A model generated the notes under the pieces. The model was not told where the DNA came from, ran no database searches, and saw only the letters and a program-made list of their open reading frames with translations. 14,522 bases of DNA from contig JBDKRC010000101.1 in NCBI GenBank assembly GCA_039683575.1, forward strand, positions 1 through 14,522, written 5' to 3'. Origin of the DNA: Armatimonadia bacterium (GTDB lineage Bacteria > Armatimonadota > Zipacnadia > Zipacnadales > UBA11051). The position numbers and the translations under genes were made by a program. Of this stretch, positions 382-14,157 are shown piece after piece (the first letter of the stretch is position 1; each line of letters begins with the position of its first letter).

Positions 382-434
382 GCTTGCTGTTTCTCGCCGG
401 AAGCCGGCGCGACCTAAATGGGGGATGCGAATCT

Positions 435-1550
435 ATGAGAATTGTCATGCGCACAAAGGGAAACGGTGAGTGGCGGCCGATGAATTCGGTCGCCTTCGCG
501 ATGGAGACTGAGCTTCAGGAGCTGCTGGCAGAGTCGCCTTCACTGCTTCCATTGGCGGAGGAGGCCCCGGGGAGCGCGCCGCCGGTGGTCGCAGTGAGGG
601 AGTTCGGACTGCCGGGTTCGGGGCAGAGCGACATCATTGCCTTCAGCGCCGAAGGCGACATCACGATCATTGAGTGCAAACTGGCAACAAACGCTGAGGC
701 CAAGCGTAAAGTGATCGGGCAGGTGCTGGAGTACGCGGCGTTCCTCTGGCAGATGAGCTATGAGGATGTTGACCGTCAGGTCAGTCAGCGATTGGGCCAG
801 AGTCTCGCGGAAGCTGTGGCCAAGGCCGCTCCCGGCCCGGCTTGGGATGAGGAGACCTTCCGCCAAAACGTAAACAGCGCACTCTTGGAGGGCGCTTTCA
901 ATCTCGTGATTGCAGTTGACGGCATCAACGAGGAACTCGCCCGTATCATCGAGTACGTAAACTCGCGCGGCAGAGCAGGCTTTGCTCTGAGCGCGCTGGA
1001 GATGCGCCTATTCAGCACCGATCAGGTGGAGATACTGGTTCCACACCTTTACGGCGTCGATGTCCAGCAGGCGGAAGAAGTCTCGCGGGGACACAAGCGA
1101 TGGACTGAAGATGAGTTTCTGGAGGCACTCCGGCAAGGACTCGCTGAAAACACGGTTAAGACTATCGAGAGCCTGCTCGAATGGTCTCATCAGAATGCCG
1201 ATCGCGTCGTCCACGGCAACGGGAAGCAAACGGGTTCGGCCACCTTCCACTACCTCAGCAACGGAACTACAGTCTCTGTCTTCAGCCTCTTGACCGACGG
1301 CAAGCTGTGGATCAACTTCGGCTACCTATCTCAGGCCGTCCCGGATCACGTTGAACAATTTCGTCAGGCGCTCACGACGATAGACACCCTGAAGGACTTG
1401 CCGAAGGACCTCACCAAATTCCCTCTCCGCGACATCGCAACAATCTTCCCGCCAAACTCTGATGCGCTCCAACAGTTCAAAGATGCCGTCCTCCAACTAG
1501 GCCGTGCCGTCCATGCTGATGCCGCCGCTCCGGCGGTTTCCGAAACCTGA
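435..1550 (+). CDS. PD-(D/E)XK nuclease, NucS/DUF91-like N-terminal domain plus uncharacterised C-terminal domain
   Basis: Motifs ExELQ, REF, SDIIAF, IIECK and IGQVLEYAA match restriction-like NucS-type nucleases. ATG at 435 follows a G-rich run at about 420-424 and is preferred over the TTG at 384. Confidence 0.75.
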   Translation: MRIVMRTKGNGEWRPMNSVAFAMETELQELLAESPSLLPLAEEAPGSAPPVVAVREFGLPGSGQSDIIAFSAEGDITIIECKLATNAEAKRKVIGQVLEYAAFLWQMSYEDVDRQVSQRLGQSLAEAVAKAAPGPAWDEETFRQNVNSALLEGAFNLVIAVDGINEELARIIEYVNSRGRAGFALSALEMRLFSTDQVEILVPHLYGVDVQQAEEVSRGHKRWTEDEFLEALRQGLAENTVKTIESLLEWSHQNADRVVHGNGKQTGSATFHYLSNGTTVSVFSLLTDGKLWINFGYLSQAVPDHVEQFRQALTTIDTLKDLPKDLTKFPLRDIATIFPPNSDALQQFKDAVLQLGRAVHADAAAPAVSET

Positions 1551-7322: not shown

Positions 7323-8192
7323 ATGAGACCCGAAACCGGAGACAAGACCATCAACGTAACCGTAGACGACGTCGCCGCCGGAGTGCGCTCCGTGGGCATC
7401 GGCCCCGGCGACCTCGTGATGTTCCATAGCTCGCTTTCCAGCCTCGGCCACGTCGTTGGCGGCCCCAACACGGTCATCGACGGCTTCCTGAAGGCCGTCG
7501 CCCCCGATGGCACCGTCGCTGTGCCGACGCTATGGTGGAATGGCACCCAGGACCTCAAGGACTGGGACTATGACAACTCCCCGTCGTATCCGGGCATCAT
7601 CACCGAGACCTTCCGCCAGCGGCCGGACAGCATCCGCAGCAACAATCCCACCCACTCCGTCTCGGCCATAGGCCCCCGCGCCGCCGAACTCACCGCCGAT
7701 CACGGCAAGTGGGGCCTGCGCCCCTGCATGTACGGCGATGGTGCCTTCGCCGAGGCGAGCCCGTGGGAGCGGTTCTACCTCTGGGATGCGCACTACTGCT
7801 TCCTCGGTGTTGACTTCACGGTCAACACCATGGGCCACTACTGCCAGTGCCGCCTGATCGAGTGGGCCCTCGAGCAGGCCCCGCCGGAAAAGCACGACGA
7901 CCTGCTCTCGCGCATCTCACGCTGGCAGAGCATCGTGGACTACTACGAAGCCAGCCGCGAGAATCCCCCGCGCACGCTCCAGTTCGTGTGGCCGAGCTTC
8001 AGCTTCAAAGACATGGGCGAGCACCTCGCCAGCCTGGGTCTCGTCCGTTTCGGCAAGATCGGCTCGGCCACGATCCGCGCCATCTCCGCGCACAAGATGG
8101 TGGACACCATCATGGCCACCATCATCGCCGAACCGGACAAGTGGCTGGTGGAGCACTTCCGCCCCTGGTGGCACGAAGCCGTCGGCAACTAA
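7323..8192 (+). CDS. AAC(3)/YokD-family (Antibiotic_NAT) N-acetyltransferase-like protein
   Basis: GDLVMFHSSLSSLGHVVGG, GTVAVPT, GIITETFR, RS..PTHSVSAIG, SPW, LGV...NT..H and GKIGSAT. SD AGGAG upstream. Confidence 0.88.
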   Translation: MRPETGDKTINVTVDDVAAGVRSVGIGPGDLVMFHSSLSSLGHVVGGPNTVIDGFLKAVAPDGTVAVPTLWWNGTQDLKDWDYDNSPSYPGIITETFRQRPDSIRSNNPTHSVSAIGPRAAELTADHGKWGLRPCMYGDGAFAEASPWERFYLWDAHYCFLGVDFTVNTMGHYCQCRLIEWALEQAPPEKHDDLLSRISRWQSIVDYYEASRENPPRTLQFVWPSFSFKDMGEHLASLGLVRFGKIGSATIRAISAHKMVDTIMATIIAEPDKWLVEHFRPWWHEAVGN

Positions 8193-8361: not shown

Positions 8362-9270
8362 ATGTCCAGGCGCCTCTGGCTCGACACCCACATCCACGTC
8401 AGCGCCACCAACTCCGACGGTAGCCACCGCGACAACCTCGTCAAAGACCTTCTCGCGATGCTCGACGGCGATGGCGATGATCTTCGCCTTGTGATCAGCC
8501 CCGACGGTGCAGAGATGGCGCGGGTGAAGACCGACCCCGACGGGCAGCTCGACGGCGCGCGCTTCATCAAAAGCGTAGTTGATGGCGCCCCCGGCCGCGT
8601 CCTCGGCGCTTGCATGGTCAACCCCAACTACTTCGACGAGGCCAACCGCACCATGGACCTGTGCTTCGGGGAGTGGGGTTTCGTCCTGCTGGGGGAGATG
8701 CTGCAGTACATGATGGACTATAAGATGAACAGCGATCCGGTGGAGAAGCTCGTCCGCCGCGCCGCCAATGAGTTTGGCGTTCCCGTGCAGGTCCACATCT
8801 CCACCTCCCTGCCCTTCAGGGACAACGCCGGTTGGGGGATGGAGCACCTTGAGGACCTGCTGGGTCTTGCCCAGCGCGTTCCCGAGGCCAACTACATTCT
8901 CGCCCACTTCGTCGGCATGCCCGACGACCCGCCGGTGGTGGACCAGTACCTCGACCGCCTCGATCAGGAGTTCAGCACCTGGCCTGACAACTTCTACGCC
9001 GAAATTCGCGACTTCAACTCCCCCGGCGTGCGCAGCCTCCTCGCTCGCGTGCCTCACAACCGCATCATCGCCGGGACCGACTGGGTCACCCGCGTCGGGC
9101 CGCCTTTCCTGCCCTACGGCTGCATCTTCGGCGTGAAGACCGAGGACGAGAACCCGTATCCCCCTCGTGTCGCAACGATGGTCAAGTTCCTGCGCGAAGC
9201 GGGCGCCAGTGAGGAGACGATCGACCTCATCGGCAGCCGCAATGCTCTCGAACTGCTACCTCTGGGATAG
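8362..9270 (+). CDS. Amidohydrolase-superfamily metal-dependent TIM-barrel enzyme (Amidohydro_2-like)
   Basis: Metal-ligand motifs DTHIH, GE, VQVH, ILAH and GTDW in the canonical order, and a C-terminal NA.ELL. SD-like AGGAAG upstream. Confidence 0.87.
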   Translation: MSRRLWLDTHIHVSATNSDGSHRDNLVKDLLAMLDGDGDDLRLVISPDGAEMARVKTDPDGQLDGARFIKSVVDGAPGRVLGACMVNPNYFDEANRTMDLCFGEWGFVLLGEMLQYMMDYKMNSDPVEKLVRRAANEFGVPVQVHISTSLPFRDNAGWGMEHLEDLLGLAQRVPEANYILAHFVGMPDDPPVVDQYLDRLDQEFSTWPDNFYAEIRDFNSPGVRSLLARVPHNRIIAGTDWVTRVGPPFLPYGCIFGVKTEDENPYPPRVATMVKFLREAGASEETIDLIGSRNALELLPLG

Positions 9271-9503
9271 TCTCCCAAGTCTGTAACAGTATCGGATTAT
9301 CTTGACTGGAACCTGGCAATCTCCATGGGTGTTGTACTACTTGTGGCGGTTGGTTGGCTGGATTGTGGTCGTGTAGTATTTACGACCGCAGACGCAATTT
9401 CGCCGCATTTTGGCCTGGGCGAGGACGGTATTGTCACATTATCACCCGCTTCTGTGCGGGTGACACAATCCAATCACGCTAAAGCAACGATTTTGTAGCT
9501 AAG

Positions 9504-9533
9504 TTGACATCCCTGTCATGGCTGTGCTACCAT
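9504..9533 (+). promoter_or_regulatory. sigma70-type promoter with extended -10
   Basis: TTGACA (9504-9509), 18-bp spacer, TG-C-TACCAT (-10 at 9528-9533), with AT-richer DNA upstream. Predicted TSS near 9540. Confidence 0.75.
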
Positions 9534-9705
9534 CGCCTTGTTGTCTGCCGATAGTAGAGCAGTAGAAAGCGTACCCCGTCGTGGGAGCCCCCCTGTGCCT
9601 CCCACCAGTCGCCCAATTACCAGCCCTGTCTGAGCACGCACATCACCCCGCACGATTTCACGTCGCGCCGCACGACACCAAGCGGCAGATTCCTGGAGGT
9701 CTCAG

Positions 9706-10494
9706 ATGAGTCGTCGAAAATGGTCCCGGGACAAGATCATTGAGAACATTAAGCAACTGCAGGCGGACGGTCATTCGCTCAGCACCCGCAGCATGGCCGA
9801 GCTTGGCTATAGCGGAATGGTGACCACGTCTTACAAGCCGGAGTATTTCGGCAGTTGGCGCAACGCGATCGTGGCCGCGGGCTACGATCCGAAGGACGTC
9901 TGCCGCCGCAAGCGCAAGTGGACCCGGGAGCGCATTCTCGGCCACATCCAGGAACTCCACAAGGCCGGGGAGGACCTCTCGCACAGCGCCGCCAAGCGGG
10001 ACCACCAGTATCTGGTCGTTGTCGCCATCAACAACCGCTTCTTCGGCAGTTGGCGCGAGGCCGTCGAGGCCGCCGGGATCAACTATGAGGAAGTCAGCAA
10101 GCACGAGTACTGGAGCAAGGACCGGATCAGCGACCGCATTCGCGAGCTACACGACGCCGGCGAGTCGCTCAGTCACGAGGATGCCAAGCGCTATCACGGC
10201 GCCCTGGTCTCCGCCGCCAGCAGCCCCCGGTACTTTGGCAGTTGGGGCGCCGCAGTCCGTGCGGCAGGCCTGAACTATGACAGCATTCGCAAGATCAACC
10301 GCTGGACCCGCGACAAGATCATCAACACCATCAACGAACTGCACCAGCAGGGCGAATCGGTAAGCAACAGCAACATGCGCCGCCTTGGCTATCGCGGCAT
10401 GATGGAAGCCGCCACCCGCGACGAAAACTTCGGCTCATGGGCCGAGGCCGTGCAGGCTGCCGGCCTTGATTACGAAGACGTGCGTAAAGCGTAG
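9706..10494 (+). CDS. Protein composed only of four ~64-aa FGSW repeats (homing-endonuclease-associated-repeat-like); putative nucleic-acid-binding protein
   Basis: Repeats W(S/T)...I..L...G...S...FGSW..A...AAG begin at aa 6, 72, 136 and 200. SD GGAGGT upstream. No nuclease motif is visible. Confidence 0.8.
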   Translation: MSRRKWSRDKIIENIKQLQADGHSLSTRSMAELGYSGMVTTSYKPEYFGSWRNAIVAAGYDPKDVCRRKRKWTRERILGHIQELHKAGEDLSHSAAKRDHQYLVVVAINNRFFGSWREAVEAAGINYEEVSKHEYWSKDRISDRIRELHDAGESLSHEDAKRYHGALVSAASSPRYFGSWGAAVRAAGLNYDSIRKINRWTRDKIINTINELHQQGESVSNSNMRRLGYRGMMEAATRDENFGSWAEAVQAAGLDYEDVRKA

Positions 10495-10504
10495 CTAACC
10501 ATGC

Positions 10505-10538
10505 AAAAAGGGGCAGCGCTTCCGGCTGCCCCTTTTTT
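10505..10538 (+). terminator. Rho-independent terminator, potentially bidirectional
   Basis: AAAAAGGGGCAGC-GCTTCCG-GCTGCCCCTTTTTT starting 10 nt after the stop codon. Confidence 0.92.
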
Positions 10539-10587
10539 GTGGCTGCCTCGGGCAGGGATGTTGCTCAGAAAGTCGAAGTAGTACCAC

Positions 10588-11070
10588 ATGGTCAGGATGC
10601 AGGTTACCAAGGTCGGATTGGACCCCAGGCGCGTGCCGTTCGTGCTGCTGAGCGACGAAGGAGGCCGGCGTATGCTGCCGATCTGGATCGGCGCCTTCGA
10701 GGCCAACGCCATCGCCACCGAACTGCAGGGCAAGACCTTCCCGCGCCCTCTCACCCACGATCTCCTGTGTTCAGTCGTGACTCGCCTGGGTTTTGAGATT
10801 GCCGAAGTCAGCGTCACCAGGATCGAGGACAGCACCTACTATGCCCTCCTCCACCTGCGCTGTGGTGCCCATACCGTCGAAATCGACTGCCGGCCCAGTG
10901 ACGCGATCGCTATCTCTCTCCGCTGCGGCGCACCTATTTTCGTCGCCGAAGAGGTATTGGAGCTTCACGAGGCCAATGAAGAGGTAGAGCGCTTCAGGGA
11001 CCTCCTGCAGGGGATCGAGCCAGAGCTGGGGGAGAGCGATCTGGACCTCCCGCCCGAACCTGACGCTTGA
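10588..11070 (+). CDS. Bifunctional nuclease family protein (DUF151/BFN)
   Basis: LPIWIGAFEANAI, RPLTHDL, IDCRPSDAIAI and PIFVAEEV are family hallmarks. Acidic tail. The start may be the ATG at 10588 or 10597. Confidence 0.93.
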   Translation: MVRMQVTKVGLDPRRVPFVLLSDEGGRRMLPIWIGAFEANAIATELQGKTFPRPLTHDLLCSVVTRLGFEIAEVSVTRIEDSTYYALLHLRCGAHTVEIDCRPSDAIAISLRCGAPIFVAEEVLELHEANEEVERFRDLLQGIEPELGESDLDLPPEPDA

Positions 11071-11096
11071 AACCTACCGCGCGGAAAACGTATACT
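11067..11096 (+). promoter_or_regulatory. sigma70-type promoter for the UPF0182 gene
   Basis: TTGAAA (11067-11072, overlapping the DUF151 stop codon), 18-bp spacer, TATACT (11091-11096). Confidence 0.6.
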
Positions 11097-11110
11097 ATGA
11101 AGTCGGCCTC

Positions 11111-11138
11111 AGCCCTGGCCCGCTGCCAGGGCTTATTT
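11111..11138 (+). terminator. Terminator- or attenuator-like hairpin
   Basis: AGCCCTGGC-CCGCT-GCCAGGGCT perfect 9-bp stem followed by a weak TATTT tract. Confidence 0.45.
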
Positions 11139-11202
11139 GCCTGCATCCATTAAAGCCCCGGCGGGCAGCAGGGACGACGGCAGCCAAACTGGAGGAGATT
11201 AA

Positions 11203-14157
11203 GTGACGAGATCGAGTCGACTGCTCATCTACGGAATGGGGATCATCTTTGCCCTCATTCTGCTACAAAAAGCCTTCATCATGTACACCGACTACCTTTG
11301 GTACCAGTCACTGGGCCAGGTGTTGGTGTTCACGAAGATCCTCGGCACCCGTTGCGTGCTCGGCCTGCTTGTGGGCGGGGTCTTCTTTGCCTGGCTTTAC
11401 AGCAACCTCCGGTACGCTCGCAAGCCCCTGCCGTCGGACCTCAAGCTCATCGGCAAGCGCCTGCTGCCCGAGGAAGAGCGCGAGCAGATCGAAGCCTATG
11501 CTGACAAGGCGCTTCTGGTCTTCGCGGTTACCGGCGCGGTCATGGCCGGCATCGTCGCTTCCGGCCGCTGGCTGCAGTGGATGCAGCTCCGCAACGGCGG
11601 CTCCTTCGGCGAGACCGATGCCCTGTTCGGCAAGGACCTCGGCTTCTACGTCTTTGACCTCAGCTTCCTCAACTTCGTCTGGCAGTCCCTCTTCTTCGCG
11701 GTAGTCATCACTTTCATATCCGCGGCCATCGTGCACATCTACCAGGAGTCGGTGCGCCTCGTCGGCAACACGGTCCACGCCGTGCCGCAGGCCAAAACCC
11801 ACCTCCTCGGCCTGCTGGGCCTGGCTCTGCTCGTGAAGGCTTACGCCTACCGGCTCGCCCAGTACAACCTGCTCTACTCCAGCCGCGGCGAGGAATTCTT
11901 CGGTCCCTCCTATGCCGATGTTCATGGCCGCCTGCCCGTGCTCTACGTCCTGATCGCCGTCGCGCTCGTCGCCGGCCTGGTCATGTTCGTCAGCACCCGC
12001 TTGCGCAGCCTCAACGTCCCCATCGGCGCTCTCGCGGCGGTGCTCATCATCTCGCTGCTCGGCGGCTGGATCTACCCGGCGGCGCTGCAGCAGTTCGTGG
12101 TCAAGCCCAACCAGTTGACCATGGAGAGCAAGTACATCAGCAACAACATCAAGGCGACCCTGAAAGCCTACGGCCTGGACACGATCAGGGCCGAGCGCCA
12201 CGTTGTGCGCGAAAACCTTGATCAGCAGGCCATCCGCAACAATCGCGCCACGATCGACAACATCCGCCTGTGGGACCACCGCCCGCTCGAGACGACTTTC
12301 CAGCAGACGCAGGCCCTGCGCAGCTACTACCGCTTCACCGACGTGGACGTAGACCGCTACCTGGTCAACGGCCAGGAGCGCCAGGTCATGCTTGCCGGTC
12401 GTCTGCTCGACCGTACCGGCCTCGTACGCCCCACCTGGGTCAACCAGCACCTGCTCTACACTCACGGCTATGGCCTCTGTCTCGCTCCGGTCAATGAGAT
12501 CGTCGGCGACGGCTTGCCCAATTACTGGGTCAAAGACTTCCCGCCACAGTCAACCGCGCCGGAGTTGGCCGTCTCTCGGCCGCAGCTCTACTACTACACC
12601 AGCCGCCACCCGCGTCTGATCGAGTACATTTCGCCCCAGGAGCGCCCGCACGAGCCCGTGCAGCCCACGCAGCCCGCTGCCGGCCCCGGTGGCCCACCCG
12701 AGCCCGGAGCGCCCGGCCCTGCTGCCCAGGAGGCTGCTGCGCCCTCAAGCCCGGCCGGCCCCGGCACCTTCGGTCCGGACGTGCCGTACGTCATCGTCAA
12801 CACCAAGGAAGCCGAGTTTGACTATCCGCGAGGCGATGAGGCCACAGTGGCTGGCGCTGCCACCGAGCAGTACAACGCGACCACCAGGTACGCTGGCAAA
12901 GGCGACGTCCAGCTTTCCAGCTTCTTCCGCCGCTTCTGCTTCTTCATGCGCTTCCGGCATCCGCAGATCATGCTGACGACGTCCATCACGCCCGAGAGCC
13001 GCATTCTCTTCAACCGTGGCCTGCCCGAGCGTCTGATGACCGTTGCTCCCATCATGGGCTACGATCCGGACCCCTATCTGGTTATCAACAAGGGCCAGCT
13101 CAAGTGGATCAGCGACGCCTACACTGCGACCAACATGTACCCCTATTCGGCCCGCGTGCCGTGGTTCGGGGCCAACTACGTCCGCAACTCGGTTAAGGTT
13201 GTCACCGATGCCTATGATGGCGTCCCCGAGTTCTACGTCATGCCGACTCTGCCCGGCCAGAAGCCCGATCCGGTCATCGAATGCTGGCAGCGCGTCTTCC
13301 CGACTCTGTTCAAAGACTACGCGCAGATGGACGAGGGCCTCAAGAAGCATCTCCGGTATCCGCAGCTCATGTTCCGCATCCAGGCCGAGATCTACGCCAA
13401 GTACCACATGGAAAACCCGCAGACGTTCTTCCAGAAGGAAGACATGTGGGCCATCCCGCCGGAGGTCTACGGCAAGGGTCGGCGTGATGTGGAATCCTTC
13501 TATGTCAACATGAAGCTTCCGACCGAGAAGCAGGGCGGCGAGGAATTCCTGCTGATGCAGCCGTTCGCGCTCGCCCGCCGCGAGGACAAAAACATGGTCT
13601 CGTGGATGGCCGCCCGCTGCGACGCCCCGAACTACGGTCAGCTTATCGTCTACGAATTCCCCAAGACCGCGCTGGTCCAGGGGCCGATGCAGGTCGAGTC
13701 ACGCATCACACAGGATGCCGACATCTCCCAGCTCATCACCCTCTGGGGACAGGAAGGCTCGGACATCATCCGCGGCAACCTGCTCGTGATCCCGGTCGAC
13801 GACGCGCTCCTCTACGTGGAGCCCTTCTACCTGCAGGCGCAGAACAACCCGCTGCCGCAGCTCAAGCTCGTGGTCGTCGCCTACGACGACCGCGTGGTGA
13901 ACGCCCCGACCCTCAACGGTGCGCTGAACAAGCTCTTCGGCGAGGGCACCGCGCAAGCCACCGCGGCTGAGACTGAGGTCACGCTGTCGGCAACAGGTTC
14001 CATGCCGTCCGCCAACCTCAAGCAACTCCTCCAGCAGGCCGTCGCGCTGGATGCCGAAGCCCAGAAGGCCATGGCTCAGGGCGATCTGGCCACCTACCAG
14101 GCCAAGCAGCGCCAGCAGCAGCAACTGATACAGCGCGCGTTCCAAATGGCCAAGTAG
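11203..14157 (+). CDS. UPF0182 family integral membrane protein
   Basis: TDYLWYQSLG, DALFGKDLGFYVF, SYADVH, NIRLWD, DVDVDRY, HLLYTHGYG, NYVRNSVKVVTDAYDG, HLRYP, GNLLVIP and YVEPFYLQ. Multiple N-terminal TM segments. GTG start after SD GGAGGA. Confidence 0.95.
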   Translation: MTRSSRLLIYGMGIIFALILLQKAFIMYTDYLWYQSLGQVLVFTKILGTRCVLGLLVGGVFFAWLYSNLRYARKPLPSDLKLIGKRLLPEEEREQIEAYADKALLVFAVTGAVMAGIVASGRWLQWMQLRNGGSFGETDALFGKDLGFYVFDLSFLNFVWQSLFFAVVITFISAAIVHIYQESVRLVGNTVHAVPQAKTHLLGLLGLALLVKAYAYRLAQYNLLYSSRGEEFFGPSYADVHGRLPVLYVLIAVALVAGLVMFVSTRLRSLNVPIGALAAVLIISLLGGWIYPAALQQFVVKPNQLTMESKYISNNIKATLKAYGLDTIRAERHVVRENLDQQAIRNNRATIDNIRLWDHRPLETTFQQTQALRSYYRFTDVDVDRYLVNGQERQVMLAGRLLDRTGLVRPTWVNQHLLYTHGYGLCLAPVNEIVGDGLPNYWVKDFPPQSTAPELAVSRPQLYYYTSRHPRLIEYISPQERPHEPVQPTQPAAGPGGPPEPGAPGPAAQEAAAPSSPAGPGTFGPDVPYVIVNTKEAEFDYPRGDEATVAGAATEQYNATTRYAGKGDVQLSSFFRRFCFFMRFRHPQIMLTTSITPESRILFNRGLPERLMTVAPIMGYDPDPYLVINKGQLKWISDAYTATNMYPYSARVPWFGANYVRNSVKVVTDAYDGVPEFYVMPTLPGQKPDPVIECWQRVFPTLFKDYAQMDEGLKKHLRYPQLMFRIQAEIYAKYHMENPQTFFQKEDMWAIPPEVYGKGRRDVESFYVNMKLPTEKQGGEEFLLMQPFALARREDKNMVSWMAARCDAPNYGQLIVYEFPKTALVQGPMQVESRITQDADISQLITLWGQEGSDIIRGNLLVIPVDDALLYVEPFYLQAQNNPLPQLKLVVVAYDDRVVNAPTLNGALNKLFGEGTAQATAAETEVTLSATGSMPSANLKQLLQQAVALDAEAQKAMAQGDLATYQAKQRQQQQLIQRAFQMAK

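Follow-up and report, generated by a model that had tools for sequence, protein, structure and literature searches.

A stand-alone four-repeat PF18780 protein encoded 5′ of a BFN-UPF0182 gene pair in Armatimonadia

Introduction

The Pfam family PF18780 (HNH_repeat, 'homing endonuclease associated repeat') is large, with approximately 5,300 clusters, and its name suggests an accessory of nucleases. The family and the common occurrence of its stand-alone form are already known. In PMC8078820 the repeat is treated by fold modelling only, and no experimental function was found for it in the literature searched under the names of the family and IPR041025. Here, a gene for a protein of this type is described from a 14,522 nt stretch of the genome of an uncultured Armatimonadia bacterium (GenBank contig JBDKRC010000101.1), referred to below as the window. 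The gene lies at 9706-10494 on the forward strand, and its product, designated the repeat protein, is made up of four PF18780 units.

HNH homing endonucleases that carry this repeat have the module in common with the repeat protein, but neither a nuclease domain nor any sign of mobility is present here. The likeness to other all-repeat PF18780 proteins consists of four matches to the family hidden Markov model (HMM) and of the all-repeat architecture. The repeat protein differs from them in that it belongs to a tight ortholog group with exactly four repeats, fixed borders and the repeat order A-B-B′-A′, confined to one Armatimonadia clade and always located 5′ of genes for a BFN_dom (DUF151) protein and a UPF0182 membrane protein (BFN and UPF0182 below). 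This four-repeat group and its place 5′ of BFN-UPF0182 are new here, as are the conserved promoter and leader and the RNA cover.

The findings are best explained by a chromosomal gene that Armatimonadia inherit vertically and express well. It may encode a nuclease-free modular nucleic-acid-binding protein, with DNA as the favoured ligand, that is probably abundant and acts globally, a reading that is given about an even chance of being correct.

A protein composed of four PF18780 units

The open reading frame (ORF) predicts a protein of 262 aa and 30 kDa with an isoelectric point of 9.4 (42 K+R versus 35 D+E). A Pfam scan detects PF18780 in four stretches (E 7.6e-25, 87.5 bits versus a cut-off of 26), and four tandem units of the expected type are present, each of ~54-65 residues with an FGSW..A..AG-type motif at its end. 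The remaining three Pfam rows for this protein are all under their own cut-offs, including HTH_Tnp_1 (18.1 versus 24.1 bits), and all NCBIfam models fall short of theirs. Neither database reveals a nuclease family, HNH or other, and repeats fill residues 6-262. The protein is therefore four PF18780 units without an enzymatic domain. In a scan of the whole genome (6.23 Mb, 96% complete) repeat 1 scores 29.4 bits, above the cut-off of 26, and repeats 2-4 score 23-24 bits; exactly one PF18780 gene is present, as opposed to an array of paralogs. The gene and its repeats are arranged as follows.

9706-10494, + strand: coding sequence of the 262 aa four-repeat PF18780 protein (ORF and Pfam; orthologs of 255-269 aa, 54-84% identity)
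9721-9918, + strand: repeat 1, type A (..LGYSGM..), residues 6-71, with the RRKRK linker at its end
9919-10110, + strand: repeat 2, type B (..AKRxHQYLV..), residues 72-135
10111-10302, + strand: repeat 3, type B, residues 136-199, with the RKINR linker at its end
10303-10491, + strand: repeat 4, type A, residues 200-262

The repeats begin at W6, W72, W136 and W200, with distances of 195, 192 and 195 nt between successive copies in the DNA. The basic linkers RRKRK and RKINR occupy residues 67-71 and 195-199, respectively. Repeats 2 and 3 share 51% identity, and repeats 1 and 4 share 45% (71% over 102 nt at the nucleotide level) as well as a one-residue insertion and an LGYxGM motif, with the remaining pairs at 33-44%. 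As these are the two closest pairs, and repeats 1 and 4 share both the insertion and the motif, the order is described as A-B-B′-A′. Five positions of the unit, W4, G46, W48, A51 and A55, are invariant in 44 aligned units. A preliminary description of this DNA, made from the sequence without database searches, had recorded an all-repeat protein with these two basic linkers and no catalytic domain, and had noted a resemblance to the repeat associated with HNH endonucleases; the repeat borders and the Pfam and NCBIfam searches agree on the first, and the PF18780 match bears out the second.

Orthologs, selection and the PF18780 family

At E ≤ 0.001, a search of the protein collection returned 1022 relatives close to the repeat protein in length. 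Among the best 120 of these, approximately 60 are 255-269 aa long and 54-84% identical to the repeat protein and, where named, are from Armatimonadota. The repeat borders are identical in all 13 orthologous genes examined, and dN/dS values (ratios of nonsynonymous to synonymous substitution rates) of 0.08-0.26 against ten 262 aa orthologs, with dS partly saturated, indicate purifying selection. The repeat protein is also more conserved than both of its neighbours in the same loci, e.g. 63% versus 39% and 35% in L039 (loci are given by their analysis labels). The G+C content of the gene is 0.62, that of the window being ~0.62, and G+C at third codon positions (GC3) is 0.81, within the 0.69-0.90 range of nine neighbouring genes. 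No direct or inverted repeats were found flanking the gene. The single copy, conserved synteny (see below), purifying selection and host-like composition together argue that the gene belongs to the host and not to a mobile element, in line with the preliminary description, which had seen host-like features and no hallmarks of mobile elements.

The wider family was surveyed with a single-repeat profile against 1.84 billion representatives of clusters formed at 50% identity, of which 5329 match at E ≤ 0.001, 2821 at ≤ 1e-10 and 847 at ≤ 1e-30. Among the 5329, the top 150 contain 3-14 repeats in 185-1224 residues and, judged from the number of stretches relative to length, are mostly repeats. PF18780 is found in all 120 near-length relatives listed, most of which carry nothing else, and the longer relatives among the matches listed mostly have PF18780 alone, i.e. 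more repeats. A few longer listed relatives include helix-turn-helix, helicase or helix-hairpin-helix accessions (PF12844/PF01381/PF13560, PF00270/PF00271/PF04851 and PF14520). In the ESM Atlas, 29 of the 30 nearest clusters are small PF18780-only proteins, and one Atlas cluster has 15% EcoEI_R_C. An HNH accession appears in the precomputed Pfam lists of none of the best 120 of the 1022 near-length relatives, and of none of the best 120 of 122 longer relatives (460-2000 aa).

The all-repeat, stand-alone form thus appears to be the usual form of the family. The preliminary description had considered that homologs nearly always fused to HNH or other catalytic domains would mark the protein as a fragment, but HNH occurs in 0 of the 240 relatives listed. 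It had also called the protein domesticated, and this term is not supported, as the stand-alone form is common in the family and nothing suggests a nuclease ancestry. The name of the Pfam repeat, and a match to one PHROG family of unknown function (E 5.9e-19), might nevertheless be taken to indicate that a homing endonuclease, or another mobile element, has lost its nuclease and left this protein behind. A decayed element of this kind is contradicted by the missing HNH domains, the length and borders fixed in 13 of 13 orthologs, purifying selection, synteny, the single copy, host-like composition and lack of flanking repeats, and has next to no probability. No PADLOC match below E 0.001 was found, which speaks against a mobile remnant, and a role as a defence system was considered and is judged unlikely; the best row for the 262 aa protein is LmuA (E 0.0014, 15.9 bits, 0 stretches), and its two neighbours have no match.

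One source labels the listed orthologs P0010, P0033, P0042 and P0050 as 'tRNA A37 N6-isopentenyltransferase MiaA' or 'biotin operon repressor', and domain scans support neither annotation.

Promoter, leader and terminator

The sequences predicted to govern expression of the gene are listed below.

9504-9533, + strand: sigma-70-type promoter, TTGACA (9504-9509), an 18-nt spacer and TACCAT preceded by TG (9528-9533); 10 of 12 positions match
9541-9705, + strand: inferred 5′ leader of ~165 nt, read from the sequence assuming a start just past the -10 box
9695-9700, + strand: Shine-Dalgarno sequence GGAGGT, five bases 5′ of the ATG, read directly from the sequence
10505-10538, + strand: intrinsic terminator of A5, an 8-bp G+C stem, a 7-nt loop and T6 (dG -28.1 kcal/mol, z -3.58)

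Four promoter-like sites occur in the region scanned versus 0.4 expected from shuffled sequences. An arrangement of TTGAC(A/T) and TGnTA..T was also recognised by eye in 13 of 18 orthologous loci, at 150-300 nt 5′ of the start codon; one of the 18 has too little upstream DNA for this comparison. Recurrence in relatives lends phylogenetic support to the predicted promoter, and makes the long leader a conserved feature. When folded, the leader of the window is not unusually structured relative to shuffled sequences (z +0.52). The terminator was found by folding analysis and is missed by a simple motif scan; apart from the window, only 1 of the 18 orthologous loci has a hairpin followed by a T-run 3′ of the gene. 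No Rfam family scores above gathering in the window and 9 loci, and at E ≤ 1 over 9200-11300 there are two weak rows only, both on the terminator.

Two further hairpins were seen in relatives. The leaders of L026, L027, L028, L029, L031, L034 and L035 contain a conserved hairpin and U-run ~55-65 nt past the -10 box (e.g. L027:5280-5320), which has 8 pairs with no compensatory change and is reminiscent of an attenuator or of a small-RNA end. The window lacks this hairpin. In L027, L028, L029, L034 and L035 a hairpin-forming motif of ~40 nt is found in the spacer between the repeat gene and BFN, and is absent from the 93-nt spacer of the window.

RNA contigs covering the repeat gene

RNA data were available from four wastewater metatranscriptome runs, representing at most three samples of one study, which were found with this stretch. 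In all four runs the longest RNA contig on the window lies over the repeat gene, at 9357-10459 (1103 nt), 9373-10375 (1003 nt), 9490-10374 (886 nt) and 9694-10279 (588 nt). The word depth of these four contigs is 15-51, while the other listed pieces are 33-390 nt long and mostly of depth 2-13, with two at 21-27 and the BFN-gene contig of run X1 at 5.3, though contig depth cannot rank genes and DNA can occur in RNA libraries. The repeat gene lies in RNA-derived contigs, and the length and depth of these give a weak hint that it is well expressed. None of the listed contigs extends past the terminator and into the BFN gene, and the bins covering 8731-9215 have no RNA contig in any of the four runs, but such gaps prove nothing about the ends of transcripts.

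The contigs that start at 9357 and 9373 extend 130-150 nt 5′ of the predicted -35 box. As they bridge the promoter, the predicted promoter may not be the only start, and 9357-9503 may contain an additional start or encode a small or antisense RNA. The near-consensus promoter, GGAGGT sequence and strong terminator named in the preliminary description are all present, and RNA contigs cover the gene. Its 'dedicated transcription unit' is not something that contigs can prove, and those of two runs bridge the promoter.

The segment 9357-9503 belongs to a 435-nt spacer 3′ of an amidohydrolase gene, and contains an 8-bp hairpin (~9444-9465) within a longer imperfect palindrome.

Predicted fold and proposed mode of action

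An AlphaFold2 model of the full-length protein, built from a 51-row alignment, has a predicted local distance difference test score (pLDDT) of 90.8 and a predicted template modelling score (pTM) of 0.41, with five helices per repeat. Repeat 2 modelled singly also has five helices (pLDDT 92.5, pTM 0.79). The full model is best described as a set of confidently predicted modules with an undefined mutual arrangement. A helical fold, for which the preliminary description had looked to structure prediction, is predicted with confidence by these models.

Weak structural matches to these modules are mostly helix-turn-helix DNA-binding domains, i.e. TetR N-domains, the sigma-54 promoter-binding domain, FapR, ArgR and KorB (Z 3.2-4.3 over 44-58 residues), though LOTUS domains and a ribosomal protein are also among them. 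The best Z in VIA-align is 4.3, with many TetR-type rows and root-mean-square deviations of 2.6-4.1 Å over 52-57 residues, and unrelated small helical domains can reach values up to 4.3 through a common helical arrangement alone. These neighbours provide a weak lead towards nucleic-acid binding and not a demonstration of it. Myb/SANT R2R3 proteins are similar in having tandem small helical modules with conserved core tryptophans and basic linkers. PF18780 modules differ from these in having five helices, ~65 residues and a hydrophobic helix 3, and there is no sequence or significant structural match.

Within the unit, positions 22-42, which include helix 2, helix 3 and the next loop, have a conservation of ~0.9-1.0 among orthologs, yet differ among the four repeats. 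The helix 1 surface is variable among orthologs. In the preliminary description a variable mid-repeat segment was suggested to set specificity repeat by repeat. This segment does differ between the four repeats, but it is the part most conserved among orthologs, so that any specificity would be fixed rather than variable, which fits a fixed and conserved ligand. Arrays that read a code, such as those of TALE and PPR proteins, have many near-identical repeats with few hypervariable positions, whereas here there are four repeats that are 33-51% identical and have fixed mid-segments.

The four five-helix modules resemble beads on a string, with short basic linkers between them. Assuming that the protein binds nucleic acid, successive modules and linkers would be laid along the polymer. 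Each module would make contact through helix 2, helix 3 and the loop that follows, the segment most conserved among orthologs. Retention of the sequence of each module across orthologs would imply a target that is itself fixed and conserved, and not fast-evolving. DNA is favoured on account of the domains fused to members of the family and the helix-turn-helix-like structural neighbours. The near-consensus, conserved promoter and the long RNA contigs over the gene hint at abundance of the type known for nucleoid-associated proteins. If the strength of the promoter and the RNA cover do reflect an abundant protein, then a global DNA-binding role, as a nucleoid-associated protein or global regulator, would fit better than that of a low-copy local repressor.

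A number of observations weigh against a globally acting DNA-binding protein. Apart from the limited meaning of the Z scores, helix 3 of the repeats is hydrophobic (MVTT, LVVVA, LVSAA and MMEAA), unlike a typical recognition helix. Foldseek searches of the PDB with the whole model and with a single repeat gave no match at E ≤ 0.001, and the single-repeat profile identified no solved relative among PDB sequences (best E 1.4). The contigs bridging the promoter count on the same side. The repeat protein is matched in 121 of 201 genomes of the phylum and was not found in the other 80, including 6 of 6 from a sister family, and hence is not indispensable. Finally, distant homologs have translation genes as neighbours, which would fit RNA binding as well. 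Homologs with three repeats are located directly 5′ of ffh-rpsP in 3 of 3 loci of family f20 (L061, L063 and L064), and in 3 of 3 loci of family f10 (L065, L067 and L068) between hpf, which encodes a ribosome hibernation factor and lies 5′ of them, and a glycosyltransferase/PAP2 pair. These are housekeeping settings, not mobile ones. The remaining 8 loci with homologs in the phylum have varied neighbours.

The ffh-rpsP and hpf loci raise the possibility of an RNA-binding or translation-associated protein, which would bind a conserved structured RNA (rRNA, signal recognition particle RNA or its own leader) and act as a chaperone, ribosome-associated factor or autoregulator. A conserved 5′ leader of 150-300 nt, the hairpin and U-run in the leaders of 7 relatives, and the LOTUS domains and ribosomal protein among the weak structural matches can be accommodated in this way, and high conservation would suit a conserved RNA target. 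However, a neighbourhood of housekeeping genes is not equal to a function, and the domains fused to members of the family are DNA-related. In addition, the leader of the window (z +0.52) is without the hairpin and U-run, and no Rfam family is matched. Binding to RNA in this role is considered unlikely, though it deserves to be kept in mind.

Gene neighbourhood

Two genes follow the repeat gene on the same strand.

10588-11070, + strand: BFN_dom (DUF151) protein of 160 aa with an acidic C-terminal tail (PF02577, E 1.1e-40); adjoins the repeat gene in 18 of 18 loci
11203-14157, + strand: UPF0182 membrane protein of 984 aa (PF03699, E 3.4e-249); next in 18 of 18 loci

The order repeat gene-BFN-UPF0182 on one strand is found in all 18 orthologous loci, which are from metagenome-assembled genomes of Armatimonadia ('Candidatus Zipacnadia'), and recurs in all 4 additional genomes compared, which belong to the same family, order and class and have identities as low as 42%. 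A version with two repeats (~130 aa matched) is located 5′ of BFN-UPF0182 in all 3 genomes from a different genus in the same order (L057, L058 and L059), and a two-module A+B unit may be the minimal form. None of the genes upstream in the window recurs in the 18 loci, and the block of synteny therefore begins exactly at the repeat gene. All DUF151/BFN proteins of the clade end in a strongly acidic tail of 15-25 residues (window 10588-11070; L025-L042). The repeat gene has no helicase, methyltransferase or nuclease gene as a partner.

This arrangement would be expected if the repeat protein were a partner or targeting subunit of the DUF151/BFN protein, and perhaps of UPF0182, supplying nucleic-acid binding in trans as the repeat does in cis for nucleases. 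The order conserved in the 18 loci, in the 4 further genomes and in the 3 with the two-repeat form points in this direction, as do the start of the synteny block exactly at the repeat gene and the pairing of acidic BFN tails with a basic repeat protein. However, sister lineages retain adjacent BFN and UPF0182 genes without the repeat gene in 6 of 6 loci, with the gene for threonyl-tRNA synthetase (ThrRS), or NifU and DUF58, 5′ of the pair instead. BFN is found in 196 of the 201 phylum genomes versus 121 for the repeat protein, and outside the clade homologs lie within 1.5 kb of BFN in 0 of 15 loci. In another set of 8 loci examined, BFN adjoins UPF0182 in none. Fusion to PF02577 or PF03699 is seen in 0 of the 240 relatives listed, and in the window a terminator separates the two genes. 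According to PMC3870250, Cor (Rv1829) of Mycobacterium tuberculosis, the one bacterial all-DUF151 protein known to have been studied, forms a dimer that has neither DNase nor RNase activity, and bioRxiv 10.1101/2025.11.14.688347 links UPF0182 to FtsH-dependent membrane-protein quality control in Actinobacteria, both of which count against the partnership. A complex prediction for the repeat and BFN proteins, run without folded controls, scored 0.00 (mark 0.32) and counts neither way. The adjacency is striking, but the BFN-UPF0182 pair appears to be independent of the repeat gene, and such a partnership is judged distinctly unlikely.

The conserved place directly 5′ of the pair could also be that of a gene for a local transcription factor of the BFN-UPF0182 operon, of its own gene or of both, for which a decamer in the leaders, CTRTCGGCAG, is a candidate operator. 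One copy (CTATCGGCAG) is on the minus strand of the window at 9545-9554, and is the sole exact copy in the 14.5 kb. Leaders of relatives contain two copies 11 nt apart (L006, L027, L034 and L035) or one copy (L026 and L029), in the orientation opposite to that in the window. However, the decamer was picked post hoc and is not enriched genome-wide, with 41 matches versus 46 for the reversed control. The operon also persists without the repeat gene in sister lineages, and a near-consensus promoter, RNA cover and conservation above that of the regulated genes would be unusual for a local repressor, making this role improbable.

The spacing of the double copies in the four loci corresponds to one helical turn. 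In a more speculative proposal, the four modules would be a fixed-specificity reader of a short tandem or symmetric DNA element, e.g. CTRTCGGCAG. The protein would in this way autoregulate its own highly expressed housekeeping gene, and would also act with the conserved DUF151/UPF0182 envelope module. Though a long shot, this would, if true, define a target and a role for the PF18780 repeat for the first time.

Elsewhere in the window, the PADLOC candidate defence family PDC-S11 is matched by a 388 aa ORF at 384-1550 (+ strand; E 1.3e-15) for which every Pfam family stays below its cut-off, and a 289 aa ORF at 7323-8192 (+ strand) is a member of the aminoglycoside 3-N-acetyltransferase family (Antibiotic_NAT, E 6.4e-41).

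Significance for the PF18780 family

In a family named after nucleases, this locus clearly shows the repeat forming a host protein by itself, encoded by a transcribed, strongly conserved gene in single copy, which argues for a cellular role of the module itself. The ortholog group would also be a convenient starting point for biochemistry, as its borders are fixed, its four modules are distinct, its promoter is conserved and homologs are encoded in single-contig genomes of the phylum.

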